From assembly GCA_038046765.1 (NCBI GenBank), contig JBBSVN010000002.1, forward strand, positions 32,001-96,000: a stretch of DNA of 64,000 bases, written 5' to 3'. Source of the stretch: Candidatus Micrarchaeota archaeon. GTDB taxonomy: Archaea; Micrarchaeota; Micrarchaeia; Anstonellales; Bilamarchaeaceae. Under the pieces are notes generated by a model. That model saw only the letters and a list, made by a program, of their open reading frames with translations. It was not told the origin of the DNA and ran no database searches. Position 1 is the stretch's first letter; the number at the start of each line of letters is the position of its first letter. The position numbers were made by a program, and so were the translations under genes. Shown here one piece after another: positions 19,693-34,816 of this stretch.

Positions 19693-20073
19693 TTATGCGC
19701 AATTGTTCAAAGTTAGTCCATTTACATTCCCGCTATTACTTACAATAGATGCAAGTATTGTCGGTATTATTATGTAAATTAATACACCAATAATTGCACC
19801 AGTAAACATTGCTGTAGCCCACACTGTTGCTCTTGCTCTTGTTTCAGCACCAAGTAATTGACCTACTGCATATATTACTGCTGACATAACTACAAGTAAA
19901 ACAACTGCTATTCCCAACATTGTTTTTGCAGACTTACATAACTCAAATAATGCTATGTTTACCCCCGTTAGTCCGCCTGCATAAGTAATTGTTGCAAAAC
20001 CCATTAAAAATAATAGAATTGTGAAAAGTTTACTAAATTTATTTAACTTTACTAATATACCCGACACGTTCAT
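19693..20073 (-). CDS. TrbC/VirB2-like pilin candidate
   Basis: Signal-like segment ending TYA, then two hydrophobic helices joined by a short charged loop (AETRARA). Confidence 0.6.
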   Translation of the reverse strand: MNVSGILVKLNKFSKLFTILLFLMGFATITYAGGLTGVNIALFELCKSAKTMLGIAVVLLVVMSAVIYAVGQLLGAETRARATVWATAMFTGAIIGVLIYIIIPTILASIVSNSGNVNGLTLNNCA

Positions 20074-28299: not shown

Positions 28300-28520
28300 T
28301 ATTTTCTTACTCAACTTAAATTTTTAATGTTTCCTCATAATTTGCTATCATTTTTCCTAAATTCATGAATTGCCGGCAACACCAAGAGAGAATCATTTGT
28401 GTGTTGCCCTACTTGTTTGCAATTTGAAGAGCCGCTTTTTTCTTTGTAATAAGTTGATACTTAGCCTAGACTTAGCTTTTTAAATAACATACTCGTTAAT
28501 CTAAGAAAGGAGGATCAGTT

Positions 28521-29330
28521 ATGAATCAACAAAAAATGTTTATGTACGGAACAGTCGCAACTGCGTTACTAGGATTTATTATAATTATCACTAGTGGCGG
28601 AGCTGGTTTACTTGGTTTAATAGGTGGTCTTTTTGCCGCGATAGGTGCTGTTTTTGCAGTTCTTGTAATAAAATATGGATACTTAATCATCCCGTTAATA
28701 ACTCAAAGAACAAAAACAGTTATCTTAACTGATACGGGATATGAAATACCCTCTTCTCAAGATGTTATTGTAAAGAATGTTAACGGTGTTTACTACGCAT
28801 CCAGTTTCCTGGTAGTTAAAGTATATGAATCAACTACTGAAAAAACTACTGAAGAAACTCTGGCCTACAACGAATTTTTTGAAAGAGCAATTTCAAATAT
28901 GAAATACGTTACAAAAATTTCATTACTTTTATATGTTGAAGAAATTGGAGAGCGAAGAAAACTTTTGGAAGCAAAACGCGCTGAAGCACAATTAAGGTTA
29001 GCAAGAGAACGGGAAAAAGCAGAAGCTGATGTTCTTAAAGTAGATAAGTTGGAGCGTGAAGTAGCTTTTAGAAATGCACAACTTAACGAAATAATTAAAG
29101 GAGTAAAACCGATGGGTTTAGTTGCCTATGCAATGACAACTGCTGCTGAATTAAGTAAAGATGCTGCGATTGCAACAGTCAAATCCAGGGTCAATGAACT
29201 TAAATCGGTTCTTGCGAACTCGCTTAATGTTGAAGTAGATATCGTAACTGGAGATCAGATGATGAAATGCTTCGAATGGGAAACATTCCTTCCAACAAGT
29301 CCACAGGAGCTTGAAGAAGCAGTCAGTTAA
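28521..29330 (+). CDS. Membrane protein (2 N-terminal TM) with coiled-coil cytoplasmic domain, VirB3/VirB4-N-like
   Basis: Gly-rich TM hairpin; first gene of the ATPase operon; AGGAGG SD. Confidence 0.55.
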   Translation: MNQQKMFMYGTVATALLGFIIIITSGGAGLLGLIGGLFAAIGAVFAVLVIKYGYLIIPLITQRTKTVILTDTGYEIPSSQDVIVKNVNGVYYASSFLVVKVYESTTEKTTEETLAYNEFFERAISNMKYVTKISLLLYVEEIGERRKLLEAKRAEAQLRLAREREKAEADVLKVDKLEREVAFRNAQLNEIIKGVKPMGLVAYAMTTAAELSKDAAIATVKSRVNELKSVLANSLNVEVDIVTGDQMMKCFEWETFLPTSPQELEEAVS

Positions 29331-29364
29331 TGTTAAATGGTTCAAAATTCAAAACGGGATAAAA

Positions 29365-30942
29365 ATGGTATTACCTCTAAAACTAAGTCGAATTTCAAAT
29401 AAAGAATTAGCTAAACGTAATCCGTTTATCTACCCGCCAGAGCCGCCCTTAGATGTAACTATGGGTGACCCCACCGATTCTATTTTTATCGGAAGAACTC
29501 AAATATTTAAGGCACCTTTTTACTGGTCATTTGAGAATGTCGCAAATCCGCACATTGCAGTTGTAGGAATCAGTGGATCTGGTAAAAGTTATTTTATTAA
29601 AACATTTCTTATTCGTGCGTCTTATGTGTGGAATTCAAATGCATTAATCATTGACTGGGCAGGAGAATACCGTGATTGGGTAAAAGAAACAGGAGGAAAA
29701 ATCATTTCACTTGGTAAAGGATCATACTTAAATTTACTCGATTTAGGTGGCATGGCGCCATACGACCGGATAAAACAAATTGTGCGTACATTAGAACTCT
29801 TAACTGATATAAAAAATTATCCCGAACAGCGAAGACTGACCGAGCAAGCAATCGAAAAAGCATATTTGGAAAATAAATTTAAACTAGATGTTGCTGAACA
29901 AAAAGATGAATTAGGAAAAACCAGGGCACCACCAACACTAAAAGATGTTGTAAAAATTCTGGAAGAACAAGCAAAACTTGGTTCATACGAATTTCCTGCG
30001 GAATTAGAAAATGCAATCTATCGATTAAAGCAATTTACAAAAAGCGGTCAGGATTATTTTGCACAGCAAAGTACTGTTAAACTTGATGACATTATAGATA
30101 GTGGTATGGTTGATCTTGATGTTTCGGGTTTACCAAGCGAGGAATTTCGTGCTTTAGCTGCTCTTACGATTCTACAATTTGTAAAAGAAAAAATGCGTGC
30201 AACAGGTTGGGCAAAAACTAAAGGTCTAAGACTTATTGTTGTTTTAGACGAAGCGTGGAAAATTGCAAAAGAAGATAACAGCGATGCAGTTATGATTGTC
30301 CGTGAAGGTAGAAAATACAACTTTGGGATAATTGTAGCAAGCCAGAACCCAACAGATATAAGTGAAGCAATATTTAGCAACGTTGGAACAACCTTTATTC
30401 TTAAGGTAAAATTTGAACGGTTTTTAGATTACTTGCAAGGTAGTCTTAACTTTAGTAACTACATGAGAAATGAAATCCAAAGGTTTGGGGTAGGTCAGGC
30501 TGCAGTAAACATGGCATTAACAACTCCGACTCCATACCCATCGACATTCATAGTTGAAAAAATCAAAGGCGAAGAACCAGTTAAGGAATATTTCCTTGAC
30601 CTATCGAGCGTTCTTACGCAAAAGCAACTGAGGGAGGTTTCTGTGTCACGAAGTATATCCTTTATAAAAGAAGATTTGAGAAAGAAACTAAGGCAGTATG
30701 GTGTTAGTGAGGAAAAAGTTGAAGAAACTACAAAACTTTTAGAAAAAAGCAACCGACACATAGATGTAGTTACATTTGTTATCCTTCTTGAGCGATATGG
30801 TCTAGCAAGAAGAAACATAACCGAGTTCCTTAAAGAAGCAGGTATTGACGATATTACGATTATTAATATATTTGGTAAGGTTGACTTAAAGAAAACCGAA
30901 TTTGGAGGTAAGGAAATAACTCAGGTTGTACTTGAAGATTAA
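29365..30942 (+). CDS. VirB4/HerA/TraG-like P-loop ATPase
   Basis: NPHIAVVGISGSGKS, IIDWAGEY, VVLDEAW, REGRKY..IVASQ. Confidence 0.88.
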   Translation: MVLPLKLSRISNKELAKRNPFIYPPEPPLDVTMGDPTDSIFIGRTQIFKAPFYWSFENVANPHIAVVGISGSGKSYFIKTFLIRASYVWNSNALIIDWAGEYRDWVKETGGKIISLGKGSYLNLLDLGGMAPYDRIKQIVRTLELLTDIKNYPEQRRLTEQAIEKAYLENKFKLDVAEQKDELGKTRAPPTLKDVVKILEEQAKLGSYEFPAELENAIYRLKQFTKSGQDYFAQQSTVKLDDIIDSGMVDLDVSGLPSEEFRALAALTILQFVKEKMRATGWAKTKGLRLIVVLDEAWKIAKEDNSDAVMIVREGRKYNFGIIVASQNPTDISEAIFSNVGTTFILKVKFERFLDYLQGSLNFSNYMRNEIQRFGVGQAAVNMALTTPTPYPSTFIVEKIKGEEPVKEYFLDLSSVLTQKQLREVSVSRSISFIKEDLRKKLRQYGVSEEKVEETTKLLEKSNRHIDVVTFVILLERYGLARRNITEFLKEAGIDDITIINIFGKVDLKKTEFGGKEITQVVLED

Positions 30943-30956
30943 TCTTTTAAATAAAT

Positions 30957-31421
30957 ATGTCAGGTGAGTTTATTAAAAAATGCATAATCTGTCAAAAAGA
31001 TATTGAAAACGAAAATGCGGTAAAGGTAAAAGATGATAAGATAATTACTACTATTCGTGCGATAAAAACAAAATTAAATGCTGTAAAAGGAAATGAACTT
31101 TATGTTTGTGAAAAAGATTTAGAAGTTCACGCAAAAAAAAGAAAAACTTATGAAAAAGATACTTTTATTGCTATGGTAATTGCTGGTCTAGCCTTTTTAT
31201 TTTTACTACTTCTTCCAATTATTCAAGGTAGAATCGACATTCAGTTCATAATCGCATCACTAATCATTTGCCTTGCGATTGTTTTTATGGCAGTTATACT
31301 AAAATATGTTCCAGCTACGCAAGAAACAAAGCTAAAATCTTCGGTACAAGAATCTGTGTCTGTAGATCAATATCGAGTTTCAGATACAAAAAAGAAAAAA
31401 ACTCAACTAAATAAAAAATAA
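30957..31421 (+). CDS. Small 2-TM protein with N-terminal CxxC...C/H motif
   Basis: CIIC, YVCEKDLEVH and two TM helices. Confidence 0.6.
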   Translation: MSGEFIKKCIICQKDIENENAVKVKDDKIITTIRAIKTKLNAVKGNELYVCEKDLEVHAKKRKTYEKDTFIAMVIAGLAFLFLLLLPIIQGRIDIQFIIASLIICLAIVFMAVILKYVPATQETKLKSSVQESVSVDQYRVSDTKKKKTQLNKK

Positions 31422-31455
31422 GTAAAATAATTCAAAATCATGAAATGTGGTATAT

Positions 31456-32211
31456 ATGGCAGTTACAAACCCCGCATCAAAACCAACACCGCAGTTAAAT
31501 AAATCTTCTCCGGGCGTTGATGGATTTAAATTGAAAGCTAGTCTAAAGGGAAAGATGGAAGATATTTCCTCTGCCTTACGTACCGTCTCATTTTTGGAAG
31601 TCGGTGCTGAAAGAGAGGCAGTTAATGCTGCATACATTGAAAGCAGGGACATTAACAAAATGCCATACCTGTTTAGTATATTGAAAATAAAAAATGACGA
31701 ACTGGAGATAGTATATACGATTCCATCGGAAATTTCACCTAAAAAAAGAAGACTTGACATGATTCGGTATTTGCTTAATATTCTTAGTCTTATTGAACCA
31801 TATTATAAAGTAGAAACTACCTCAATCTATCAATTGATTGAAAACGCTGTAAAAGAAATAAGTGAAATAGTTTCACTTGACTACAGTAAACTTTATACTT
31901 CGTATGATACTTTGAAAAAAGAACTTGATGATACAAAGAGGAAACTTGGTAGGTTTACTCAAGAAAATCAGAGCCTTACTAACAGAAATTTTGAACTGAA
32001 AAACAAGAATGATGAAGTGATGCTTCGGTTAAAAGACCTAGAAACATACTCTGATGATATCTTAAAGGCAAAAATAGCGGAGTGGATTGTTGAGCACAAT
32101 GGCGAGATTAATATCTATGAATTTTCCAAAGTTTTCAAAGTGCAAGAAACACGTATTGAACAAATGCTCAATGTACTTATGAATGAAGGATACATTGAAT
32201 CAACTGCATAA
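31456..32211 (+). CDS. Coiled-coil protein with C-terminal winged helix
   Basis: Heptad-rich centre; EINIYEFSKVFKVQETRIEQMLNVLMNEGYI wHTH pattern. Confidence 0.6.
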   Translation: MAVTNPASKPTPQLNKSSPGVDGFKLKASLKGKMEDISSALRTVSFLEVGAEREAVNAAYIESRDINKMPYLFSILKIKNDELEIVYTIPSEISPKKRRLDMIRYLLNILSLIEPYYKVETTSIYQLIENAVKEISEIVSLDYSKLYTSYDTLKKELDDTKRKLGRFTQENQSLTNRNFELKNKNDEVMLRLKDLETYSDDILKAKIAEWIVEHNGEINIYEFSKVFKVQETRIEQMLNVLMNEGYIESTA

Positions 32212-32236
32212 GCTAAATTTATAAGAAGGGCATTTT

Positions 32237-34816
32237 ATGGTCGAACTAAAAAAAATAAAAATTGAAAAAAAATTCTACCATTTCGATGTAAAGAAAAGGT
32301 ATCAGAAGTCAAATAAATACAAGCTAAAGCAAAGGACTGCTCTGGATAATTTTCGGTCTATGCTAAGTGCTCCAAAAACTAAAACGCAGGATACTTCAAA
32401 AAATCTTAAACCTTCGTCTCCACTTAACTTTAAGATTATCGGACTCTTTGTTTTAATTGCATTTTTGGTGGGTTTAGGCCTTACTCTTTATCTTAGTGCC
32501 CAAATTGCACAAATTACCTACGTACAACCTACTATACTTGCACCTGTTGGAAACTTGGATGCCAAGATATTATCTAGTGGTGTAATTACTTCGGGTTCTA
32601 GAATCGAAGACCTTAATTCAGGAGTTGTACTTTTAGATCTTAACTATGTGGGAATAACAAACTACTCTGTAAATTTAACTTTATATAAACAATTACTCCC
32701 TAATCAGATTTTCATATTATCAACTAATAAAATGGAACAAGCAGATGGTTATCCTGTTTTTTTCCAGACACTTAAGGATGAGCTAAATAAGAAAGGCCTC
32801 AGTGTAAGTCAGGTGACTATCGCACAACTTGAGTCCATACCAAAAGGCGCTCTTATAATCGTTCCAACTGGGGTAATACCGCAGGAATTGCTTGGGATAA
32901 ATAGTAAAGCAACAATCACTTCGTTAATTGATAGGGGGGACGTAATTGTATATATTGGTCAACCCTTTAACAAGATGATCGGGGAAAACGGTGTCGTATT
33001 AACCCCTCAAGATATCCAAAATAGTTTTCCAATTCGGTTTGATGAATCGGCCGTGCTAAAAAGTACTTCTGATATTAATCTTTATCCTGCCTATCAGGTA
33101 AAAGATGCAGTTGGTTATAAATCTGATTTAATATATGGTTCAGTTAGCGTAGTTAAAAGTGATTCTGGCGGTGCAATTCTATTTCTTCCATCTACTCTTG
33201 ATGCTGGCTGGGTAGATCAGGAGAAACGAAGCGCTCCTAGTTTAGCTGGTAAGGATGTTGCTAGGGTTATTTATCAGACAAAATGGGTAGATCAGGAGGG
33301 GGATACAAAATCTTATTCTGGCGGGTTTACCAATGAAAGCCAGTTAACAAAAAGTTTCTTTACAAATACTTTCAAGGCAGATCAAAGAAGCGTTAAAATT
33401 GAAATTAATGGGTTTAGCGCAGCCGGTGTTGATACTGTTGATCGTACTCTTATTACTAGTTTGTCTAGTTCAATAGCTGGCGATTTATATCTTGAAATCG
33501 ATGGTGGCGGGTTTACTACTGTTCCAAAAGTAATTGGTGAAGAAAATCTTAGGATTACTGCAAGACTCAAAAATCCTGTATCTATAGAAAAATCACTTTA
33601 TATATCTATAACTAAAGATGGGAAGGAAATTTCGGATAAAATTCCTCTTGGTATAATTAATTTACAATCTGATTTTACTACGAGTATTCCAATTGACTTA
33701 GATTCTGGAGAATACATCTTATCTGTTGTTGATGAAGATGAAACTATTTACTCTCAAAGCATTCTCAAAGTTGTTTTTGTAGATGTTGCGTATTTTGGCC
33801 AAGGAGGTACTAAACATAAATATTATTTTCAGATACAAAAAGACGGTCAAAAAACCGAAATCAATAATGTACTTGTAAGCATACAAGGTGGCAAGTATGG
33901 TATTTATAATTTCTCCAAGGTTTCGGACATTGTTATTGATACTGAAAAAGCTACTAACGGTGAAGAACTTGCCTCCCGCAGTTATGATTTTGCGTTTACC
34001 TTTGGTAAAATTCAGCCAAAAATCGTTAAGGTTTCAAAAGTAAAATCAAAACCAATTTGGGAAGAACAGCCACTGTTTCTTGTTGCTGGTTTAATCTCAC
34101 TTCTTATTGTAGGTATTGGTGTTGTATTTGCAAGAAAAGAACAACCCGTTTATCTATTGGATATTCCTGATTTCCCCCCCATTGCTAAAACTAAAATCCC
34201 AATAAAAACAAACGAAGTCATCGCATTATTTGATTCTGTAAATGATGCGTATAGGTGGAAATGCACTCCCCTTACCCTTGCTGAAATAAAAAATGGATTT
34301 AAGAAAATATTTCATGGAGGAAAGCCAATACTAATAACTGATTATAATACTCAGTTTATTATTGAAGATCTGATCAAGAAAGATCTTGTATCTACATCAC
34401 TTGAATATTATGGTCTTAAATCATGGGAGAGTAAAACAAAAACTCCTATGCAATATATGGCAATATTTAGAAAGTTAAGGGACATTTTTGTTAATAATGC
34501 TATCCCATTTACTCAAATCGGGGAAAGCGAAAATTGCGATACTACTATTAGTATTGTTGGTCAAAATATGTATTTGCATATTTATTACAATGGAGGGGAT
34601 GCTGTTCTGCTGCTTAAAAATATTTTATCTAATATAAAGCTTGGCCTAAATATTGTTGTTTTAAAAGGTGAAGATGAGAAAAATAATTTTCAAAACCTTC
34701 TTTCATCTTCAAATACTGGTGCAATGATAACTAAATTAGAAATCGAAAATGGTACTGTACAACTGATGGGTATCGAAGAATTTGAAAAGATGGTTGTAGA
34801 GTTAAAAACTATCTAG
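32237..34816 (+). CDS. Large 2-TM protein with ~520 aa extracellular loop and cytoplasmic C-terminal domain
   Basis: TM at about aa 66-87 and 612-632; beta-rich loop; last gene of the operon. Confidence 0.65.
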   Translation: MVELKKIKIEKKFYHFDVKKRYQKSNKYKLKQRTALDNFRSMLSAPKTKTQDTSKNLKPSSPLNFKIIGLFVLIAFLVGLGLTLYLSAQIAQITYVQPTILAPVGNLDAKILSSGVITSGSRIEDLNSGVVLLDLNYVGITNYSVNLTLYKQLLPNQIFILSTNKMEQADGYPVFFQTLKDELNKKGLSVSQVTIAQLESIPKGALIIVPTGVIPQELLGINSKATITSLIDRGDVIVYIGQPFNKMIGENGVVLTPQDIQNSFPIRFDESAVLKSTSDINLYPAYQVKDAVGYKSDLIYGSVSVVKSDSGGAILFLPSTLDAGWVDQEKRSAPSLAGKDVARVIYQTKWVDQEGDTKSYSGGFTNESQLTKSFFTNTFKADQRSVKIEINGFSAAGVDTVDRTLITSLSSSIAGDLYLEIDGGGFTTVPKVIGEENLRITARLKNPVSIEKSLYISITKDGKEISDKIPLGIINLQSDFTTSIPIDLDSGEYILSVVDEDETIYSQSILKVVFVDVAYFGQGGTKHKYYFQIQKDGQKTEINNVLVSIQGGKYGIYNFSKVSDIVIDTEKATNGEELASRSYDFAFTFGKIQPKIVKVSKVKSKPIWEEQPLFLVAGLISLLIVGIGVVFARKEQPVYLLDIPDFPPIAKTKIPIKTNEVIALFDSVNDAYRWKCTPLTLAEIKNGFKKIFHGGKPILITDYNTQFIIEDLIKKDLVSTSLEYYGLKSWESKTKTPMQYMAIFRKLRDIFVNNAIPFTQIGESENCDTTISIVGQNMYLHIYYNGGDAVLLLKNILSNIKLGLNIVVLKGEDEKNNFQNLLSSSNTGAMITKLEIENGTVQLMGIEEFEKMVVELKTI

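Follow-up and report, generated by a model that had tools for sequence, protein, structure and literature searches.

What kind of machine, if any, is encoded by five adjacent genes that recur side by side in the Micrarchaeota, a phylum of tiny symbiotic archaea? We analysed a window of 64,000 nucleotides from a Candidatus Micrarchaeota archaeon, in which these genes, here called A to E, occupy positions 28521..34816 of the plus strand with intergenic gaps of 34, 14, 25 and 25 nt. Gene A (28521..29330) encodes 269 residues with transmembrane (TM) segments at 16-34 and 39-57. Gene B (29365..30942) encodes a protein of 525 aa without TM segments, gene C (30957..31421) one of 154 aa with TM segments at 71-89 and 97-115, gene D (31447..32211) a soluble protein of 254 aa without TM segments, and gene E (32237..34816) one of 859 aa with TM segments at 67-85 and 613-631. 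The list of open reading frames thus bears out the original prediction of five co-oriented and closely packed genes. For B the reading frame and its motifs stand as well, but translation most likely begins at ATG 29365 rather than at TTG 29311. We prefer the ATG because the database protein P0001 has 525 aa and most orthologues have 520-530 aa; with this start A and B do not overlap.

The setting appears chromosomal and non-mobile, as had been claimed. The GC content of the operon (0.342) equals that of the genome, and the 64-kb window contains no tRNA genes. The flanking genes are of the housekeeping kind: Pfam recognises an NFACT protein, an MBL-fold hydrolase, a SET protein and TFE, to which inspection of the translations by eye adds ValRS and a glycosyltransferase. 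Neither the open reading frames of the window nor the seven neighbours searched with Pfam include a relaxase, an integrase or Mre11/Rad50. Viral contigs yielded no relatives, and 72,556 plasmids yielded none with 80% coverage. A scan for promoters and terminators with sigma-70 models, which are unsuited to archaea, stayed at chance level.

Conservation of the five genes as a unit had been set beforehand as a test, and the outcome favours the claim. The order A-B-C-D-E is kept in 59 of 60 loci with sufficient flank and in 27 of 31 loci of another set, and B-C-D-E is kept in all 15 distant loci; these sets overlap in part and related genomes are not independent. Among 151 Micrarchaeota genomes, ATPase B is present in 134, a CedA/VirB6-like family that we call M in 135 and the C-terminal domain of E in 131. 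All three are missing from the same 16 genomes, so the system is not required for the lifestyle of the whole phylum. Usually there is a single B orthologue per genome, and B is 43-77% identical in an alignment of 54 rows that also contains paralogues. The tail of B exists a second time as a separate gene, termed B', in 12 of the 15 distant loci. Paralogous modules also occur, as pilin-M-A-B-D in five of nine loci and as pilin-M-A-B-E in two further loci.

Is B a DNA-repair HerA helicase whose neighbours are incidental, or the motor of a type IV secretion system (T4SS)? All the P-loop ATPase motifs noticed at the outset are located in B: GISGSGKS at residue 68, DEAW at 295, REGRKY at 313 and ASQ at 325. 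The Pfam families AAA_10 and P-loop_TraG match above cut-off. Among the NCBIfam models B scores 79.9 bits with CedB, 78.6 with VirB4_plasma, 72.8 with CD1110 and 70.6 with CedD, against 43 and 36 bits with the HerA models, all far under the cut-offs. At 80 of the 700 bits demanded for CedB and 71 of the 600 demanded for CedD, B does not count as an orthologue of either. We calculated a maximum-likelihood tree of 32 rows, with VirD4 omitted and CedB, CedD and TedB sequences absent. The B clade (100/100) joins the VirB4s at 95/91 and the HerAs form a 100/100 clade of their own. The separation from repair HerA that had been predicted therefore holds in the topology, but the AU test does not reject a tree in which B is constrained to group with HerA (p 0.317).

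This AU result speaks for the repair helicase, as do DUF87 being the top Pfam match of B and the HerA label which such proteins carry in GenBank. On the other hand, the Walker A motif of B lies at residues 68-75 and Pfam finds no HAS-barrel in the protein. The genome has another, repair-type HerA on contig C10, which scores 171 bits on helicase_HerA compared with 36 for B, and NurA sits on contig C20, unlinked to the operon. Together with the separate HerA clade and the neighbours kept as a unit, this largely refutes the repair reading, and we consider it extremely improbable. B is, as far as its sequence tells, a soluble VirB4/CedB-type ATPase core of the FtsK-HerA class with a helical tail of about 110 aa. 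It provides the VirB4-family ATPase expected in the T4SS superfamily, with the AU test not decisive.

Gene A supplies a second part of VirB4. The protein is a two-TM hairpin joined to half of the VirB4 N-terminal alpha/beta domain (NTD) with a coiled-coil insertion, similar to TrsD or to the N-terminus of CedB/CedD. Its fold matches the VirB4 NTD, with Foldseek E-values above 1e-3, and superposes on residues 219-380 of TrwK from R388. The A profile matches TrsD-like plasmid proteins (E = 0.035 against a single one) and recovers coiled coils alone from the PDB sequences; comparison of A with B gave no match. It had been proposed that A and B resemble a split VirB3-VirB4. The split VirB4 stands; as for VirB3, no VirB3 or PrgI family of Pfam or NCBIfam matches A at E = 0.1, though the hairpin is in the expected position. 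The A family is stand-alone, since the 150 best of its 234 matches include no fusion to an ATPase, as judged by length. A separate TrsD-like gene plus ATPase is also found at plasmid loci of monoderm type (L171, L192, L194, L195 and L196), and the split of VirB4 is an arrangement already known from monoderm conjugation systems. According to section 9 of PMC11868833, the N-domains of CedB and CedD correspond to different parts of the VirB4 NTD, and this fits the tandem A genes seen in 11 of the 15 distant loci. We suggest that A, which carries the VirB4 NTD of the T4SS superfamily here, is probably the membrane anchor and scaffold of ATPase B.

The three remaining proteins have the general build that was originally described, namely a two-TM protein with a Cys motif, a coiled-coil/winged-helix protein and a two-TM surface protein of 859 aa. 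C is small and has an N-terminal CxxC...CxxC-like domain; it belongs to no known family, and Pfam and NCBIfam give no match above cut-off. In 33 aligned rows, C9 is present in all, C12 and C51 in 29 each, while residue 54 varies, being C in 18 rows, D in eight (the present protein included) and H in six. This domain probably binds zinc. D consists of an alpha/beta domain (residues 23-122, with a KA1/TBP-like look), a coiled coil of about 75 residues and a truncated C-terminal winged helix. The best structural and sequence match of the terminal 55 or so residues is the winged helix of the archaeal ESCRT-III protein CdvB (PDB 2xvc), which likewise stops directly behind its final strand; a generic Lrp-type winged helix reaches an equal structural score. 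Foldseek found nothing for D at E = 1e-3 or better. Unlike CdvB, D lacks the Snf7/PspA helical core of ESCRT-III, its N-terminal region being the alpha/beta domain and one long helix. In CdvB the winged helix binds a strand of CdvA in trans. D is a probable cytoplasmic adaptor, and a predicted complex of B with residues 20-254 of D scored 0.00 against a mark of 0.32, which is uninformative either way.

E is predicted to expose an extracellular region of about 530 aa (86-612) and to end in a conserved cytoplasmic domain (632-859). In 41 rows, N-glycosylation sequons amount to 1.67 per 100 aa in the middle region, 0.23 in the N-terminus and 0.50 in the C-terminus. Conservation in E peaks at residues 641-760. 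As a weak lead, the C-terminal domain may combine a winged helix with a PD-(D/E)xK-like fold which lacks the usual catalytic motif; the Atlas leads are a score of 0.79 and PF13814 in 11% of one cluster. The profile of this domain matched three proteins in total, of 114-394 aa. For whole E, neither PDB sequence search nor the Atlas indicates a family, and no Pfam family occurs in more than one of the 41 full-length members.

Candidates for the channel and the pilus are found outside the operon. Family M proteins have 4-10 predicted TM segments, and the genome encodes 13 of them, with two arrays of six. Directly upstream of the operon lies an M array in 10 of the 15 distant loci; in three others this place is taken by a pilin-like gene. 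CedA is matched by three of 46 members (best E = 5.3e-6, under the curated cut-off) and not by the other 43, and the M profile recovered no match from the PDB sequences, any solved VirB6 included. The N-terminus of M matches the pilin family (hhalign E = 1e-4, probability 57%), which parallels the resemblance of the CedA N-terminus to CedA1 described in PMC9905601. Two M genes even carry fused whole pilin domains. In a tree obtained with a quick method, the operon-linked copies cluster by array position; positions 1, 3, 4 and 6 of the two arrays of this genome pair with SH-aLRT values of 81-91, which is unsure because of long branches. One M array is followed by a gene for a membrane-anchored protein of 1444 aa.

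The window itself contains a VirB2/TrbC-like pilin gene at 19693..20073 on the minus strand (126 aa). Its product is found with E = 6.7e-5 by a profile of five other pilin-like proteins that excludes it, and in some relatives a gene of its family sits immediately before A. Among the 12 proteins of this family, five match T4SS_pilin (best 8.3e-7) and five match TrbC (best 1.2e-5), in both cases below the curated cut-offs, while the protein of 19693..20073 matches neither. The family compares with the TrwL pilin at E = 0.44, and a search of the genome for VirB2-like pilins gave nothing over cut-off. Channel-like and pilin-like genes thus co-occur with the operon and are often linked to it. Since they lie outside, the five genes would be the motor and accessory part only.

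How does this set compare with known systems? Ced (CedA, CedA1, CedA2, CedB, CedD and CedE in Sulfolobales and Desulfurococcales) and Ted (TedA, TedB and TedC in Thermoproteales) import DNA. The present system resembles them in being chromosomal, in showing no relaxase, in its VirB4-type ATPase with CedB as the top NCBIfam score, in its half-NTD architecture, and in having candidates for a VirB2-like pilin and for a VirB6-like channel with a pilin-like N-terminus. In contrast to Ced, where they are fused, the TM segments and the half-NTD are encoded apart from the ATPase. The candidate channel paralogues number 6-13 rather than one or two, C, D, E and B' are additional, a CedD-like partner over cut-off was not found in this genome, and expression probably occurs without UV induction. 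We therefore call the system T4SS/Ced-like but not a member of Ced. The Patescibacteria T4SS and the conjugation modules of monoderm MPF_FATA type (PrgI/TrsC - TrsD - VirB4) have a separate TrsD-like gene ahead of the ATPase, as here, and in Actinobacteria the counterpart is SCO6880 plus an ATPase. PMC12102498 describes the Patescibacteria T4SS as chromosomal and relaxase-less, with pilin arrays and TrsD, and as essential for epibiotic growth. The B clade is, however, apart from seven plasmid VirB4s and from the CD1110-type VirB4s of some Micrarchaeota, PrgI/VirB3 is unmatched, and counterparts of C, D and E were not found. Compared with R388 (MPF_T), A corresponds to one half of the NTD alone, and VirB8, 9, 10 and 11 are absent from the operon.

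A and B are homologous to VirB4 and the gene order is conserved. We estimate the probability that the five genes are part of a T4SS-derived machine at about 0.9, and the claim of a T4SS/Ced-like system that is kept as a unit and differs from repair HerA is supported. What we say next about its assembly, about the functions of C, D and E and about substrate and direction is inferred. The operon would supply motor and accessory proteins to a T4SS-like machine that has become fixed in the chromosome (domesticated). The hairpin of A would sit in the membrane and two A halves, a homodimer here and two paralogues in many relatives, could rebuild the VirB4 NTD and hold a ring of ATPase B. The channel through the membrane would be built from CedA/VirB6-like M paralogues, and a short pilus or conduit from VirB2-like pilins. 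E would reach into the envelope or the zone of contact with its large, glycosylated domain and keep a nucleic-acid-type domain in the cytoplasm, with C and D serving as adaptors.

What would such a machine transport? As with Ced and Ted, the most likely job is import of nucleic acid, and we give even odds to a contact-dependent uptake from a host or neighbour cell, for nutrition or recombination. Against import, a second, VirD4/CedD-like ATPase over cut-off was not found, while Ced requires CedD, as PMC11823120 states. The genome, which is 89.7% complete, has no match over cut-off to the coupling protein family PF10412 (VirD4/TcpA); a third weak match lies on contig C7. The B profile finds B, a B paralogue and the repair HerA, nothing else. 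Export, with effector proteins (or DNA) being delivered to the host, would be the customary T4SS direction, and some protein-secreting T4SSs do without a coupling protein, according to PMC12102498. A secretion role is suggested in PMC10266531 for VirB4-like giant proteins of Nanohaloarchaeota, and host-interacting Rickettsiales and Patescibacteria are known to have expanded sets of VirB6 and VirB2 paralogues. We nevertheless regard export as rather unlikely: no effector-like genes accompany the operon, whose neighbours are variable and housekeeping, and the relaxase-less chromosomal relatives tested so far in archaea (CedA, CedB and CedD) work in import.

It is quite unlikely, in our view, that nothing is translocated and that the machine serves only to build and anchor an attachment structure or a VirB2-type pilus. 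Assembly is the general role of VirB4, and the lack of a coupling ATPase over cut-off, the large extracellular region of E and the membrane-anchored protein behind one array would all suit such a structure. For this purpose alone, five conserved domains on the cytoplasmic side (among them C, D, the tail of B and the C-terminal domain of E; two show winged-helix features) seem excessive, and the most conserved part of E is cytoplasmic. Finally, the T4SS parts could have been co-opted internally, for membrane remodelling, DNA pumping at the division site or bridging of conspecific cells, with the winged helix of D as recruiter. The CdvB match of D points this way, as does an orthologue which is usually single per genome, well conserved and probably abundant. 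We judge this improbable in view of the equal score of the Lrp-type winged helix, the missing ESCRT-III core and alpha/beta N-domain of D, the linked pilin-like and CedA-like genes, and the absence of the whole set from sixteen genomes.

Evidence of expression comes from the cultured micrarchaeon ARM-1. There the run BCS90994/5/6/7/9 has masses of 56.5, 12.6, 15.1, 28.3 and 90.9 kDa, within the ranges of B, B', C, D and E, an assignment made by order, mass and annotation and not by sequence. Masses and iBAQ values are from the co-culture proteome (supplement of PMC11329633). The iBAQ of the ATPase is 2.3e9; ribosomal protein S19e reaches 7.4e9 and the other HerA 0.47e9. Thus, the system is probably expressed and abundant in ARM-1. 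Host-contact structures of ARM-1 have been imaged (PMC11329633). We rejected the idea that the nanotube imaged in this co-culture is the pilus of the system, because the tube is host-derived and its lumen of 4.4 nm (PMC11329633) is wider than the 1.6-2.6 nm of known conjugative pili.

Our literature search found no published description of this Micrarchaeota operon. We consider it a strong and apparently unpublished candidate for how Micrarchaeota draw material from other cells. More speculatively, and doubtful at present, it might be the principal device by which Micrarchaeota feed on or contact other cells, and the third T4SS lineage to have been domesticated independently in archaea. A hetero-oligomeric ring of six distinct CedA-like proteins, a split VirB4 motor and the giant protein E would together make up an envelope platform, possibly the 21-nm barrel of ARM-1. 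Host nucleic acid would be pulled in through this platform, and the cytoplasmic domain of E would process it.

The operon bears on how DPANN archaea get nucleotides and other host material, and it offers BCS90994-BCS90999 of the cultured ARM-1 as concrete candidates for host-contact proteins. Unusual would be the multi-paralogue channel, accompanied by three accessory proteins of no known family. Domesticated conjugation machines would then extend past Ced/Ted and the Patescibacteria, and the feeding apparatus, if true, would parallel the essential T4SS of the latter.

Five open reading frames with the transmembrane segments and motifs of the original prediction are borne out on re-reading the window at 28521-34816. 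Their coordinates stand, except for the start of gene B, the VirB4/HerA-like ATPase, which is most likely the ATG at 29365 (525 aa). With this start the genes A-B-C-D-E are separated by gaps of 34, 14, 25 and 25 nt. The operon has the mean GC content of the source genome (1.5 Mb, 89.7% complete) and is flanked by housekeeping genes, and no tRNA gene is found in the 64-kb window, which spans C2:32001-96000. By eye, the stretch directly upstream of gene A (28479-28513) contains a TATA-like TTTAAATA and a Shine-Dalgarno-like AGGAGG. A small SET-domain gene (PF00856; 27786-28118, minus strand) is divergent from the operon and is absent from the recurring neighbour clusters of the relatives' loci.

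The original prediction required the neighbours to be conserved as a unit, and the gene order bears this out. B is matched in 41/41 relatives; in a sample of 151 genomes from across the phylum, 134 have a match at E <= 1e-30. Its taxon-labelled relatives are Micrarchaeota or subgroups, apart from a few records titled 'archaeon' and two titled 'ainarchaeum'. In 27 of 31 best-match loci, picked for long contigs, A-B-C-D-E follow each other on one strand; A is absent in one, E is inverted in two (L056 and L058) and one stops short of any recognisable E. A further 80 loci gave the same order in 59 of the 60 with adequate flanks, and the 20 shorter ones are compatible with a truncated version of it; the locus sets overlap partly, and kin among them are not independent. 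All 15 loci examined in more distant families retain B-(B')-C-D-E, B' being a separate gene for a second copy of B's helical tail; A is present twice in 11 of them and not at all in two. Within the window's own family, L060 and L061 also carry a duplicated A and a separate B'. We found no relative of B on viral contigs and none spanning 80% of B among 72,556 plasmids. An additional stretch of about 540 aa is present in some B orthologues (L088:7488-10628, and the 1016- and 1067-aa open frames in G007:C9 and G140:C37); in L088 it sits immediately after Walker A, and it is probably an intein.

The putative missing parts of the machine are located elsewhere in the genome. Family M, membrane proteins with 4-10 predicted transmembrane segments, has 13 members, namely two arrays of six (C4:20311-28872 and C10:32268-40293) and a single copy within C4:101849-103768. 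M occurs in 135 of the 151 genomes, among them all 134 with B; M, B and the C-domain of E are all absent from the same 16. Directly 5' of A we find an M array in 10 of the 15 distant loci and pilin-like genes in three more, as well as in 6/80 of the further loci. Only 3 of 46 M members match the channel protein CedA, weakly (best 5.3e-6), and 5/12 members of the pilin family match T4SS_pilin and 5/12 TrbC, all below curated cut-offs; M as CedA-like and the pilin family as T4SS_pilin/TrbC-like are candidate assignments. The M N-terminus matches the pilin family, which echoes the relation of CedA to its pilin-like partner CedA1 described in PMC9905601. One pilin-family member lies in the window (19693-20073), and a whole pilin-like domain is fused N-terminally to two M genes (C4:27160-28872 and C4:20311-21699; L071). 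A 1444-aa Cys-rich membrane-anchored protein without Pfam match follows the M array on C10 (C10:41225-45556; L072:9726-14057), and proteins of 1100-1450 aa come after E in L082, L088 and L090.

A paralogous module is scattered over the source genome in pieces: B2-D2 (C4:73525-75649), M-A2 (C4:101849-103768), a pilin-like gene (C12:34652-34906) and, where C7 ends, a gene resembling E. In relatives the order is pilin-M-A-B-D in 5/9 loci. One such module (L190:3077-6949, genome G164) has a short diverged ATPase of 359 aa and diverged A and D, and is possibly decaying or non-catalytic. Some 1.5 kb separate the paralogous ATPase from a gene resembling a reverse transcriptase (C4:70753-71978, minus strand), which is split over two ORFs, has a YVDD motif and by eye looks like a DGR- or intron-type enzyme.

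In its proposed working the machine resembles the crenarchaeal DNA-import systems Ced and Ted; unlike theirs, its ATPase B falls outside CedB and CedD. A coupling ATPase is not detectable in the source genome, at 89.7% completeness. Some Micrarchaeota have separate full-length CD1110-type VirB4 genes (L181, L182, L185, L186 and L184), which group with bacterial VirB4 and not with B and probably belong to mobile elements. TM-anchored ATPases in two relatives (L183:129-2399 and L187:1140-3716) score best in NCBIfam with CedD and CedB, and could be true Ced-like partners. Genome G112, without the operon system, encodes a protein of 3395 aa that contains a HerA/VirB4-like domain, and next to it comes a second ATPase gene (L191:2904-13088); the arrangement is similar to the nanohaloarchaeal giant proteins described in PMC10266531.

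In the cultured micrarchaeon ARM-1, Supplementary table 1 of PMC11329633 contains the consecutive proteins BCS90994 ('HerA', 56.5 kDa), 90995 (12.6), 90996 (15.1), 90997 (28.3) and 90999 (90.9), all detected in 4/4 co-culture replicates; BCS90998 is missing from that table. All five fit the mass ranges that 12 loci give for B, B', C, D and E, and by order, mass and label, not sequence, the proteins are probably these five. Their iBAQ values are 2.3e9, 0.68e9, 0.85e9, 1.7e9 and 0.79e9; S19e reaches 7.4e9 and the other HerA 0.47e9. The main text mentions neither VirB nor T4SS; within the envelope of ARM-1 it reports an unidentified 21-nm barrel which docks a host-derived tube, and a link of this barrel to the operon's machine is speculation.

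T4SS and Ced/Ted themselves are known. A literature search, with subscription journals and bioRxiv supplements outside its scope, gave no description of a VirB4/Ced-like system in Micrarchaeota, and the available part of a 2025 T4SS review (PMC12857230) mentions neither DPANN nor Micrarchaeota. The operon apparently lacks a published description, though a prior mention is possible.

We suggest, with a probability of roughly 0.9, that the operon is part of a domesticated T4SS-like envelope machine. That B is instead a repair HerA seems very improbable, and an internal role in membrane or division processes is improbable. Export by the machine is unlikely, and a role limited to attachment slightly more so. 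For the T4SS-like machine itself we put at about even odds that it would import nucleic acid upon contact.
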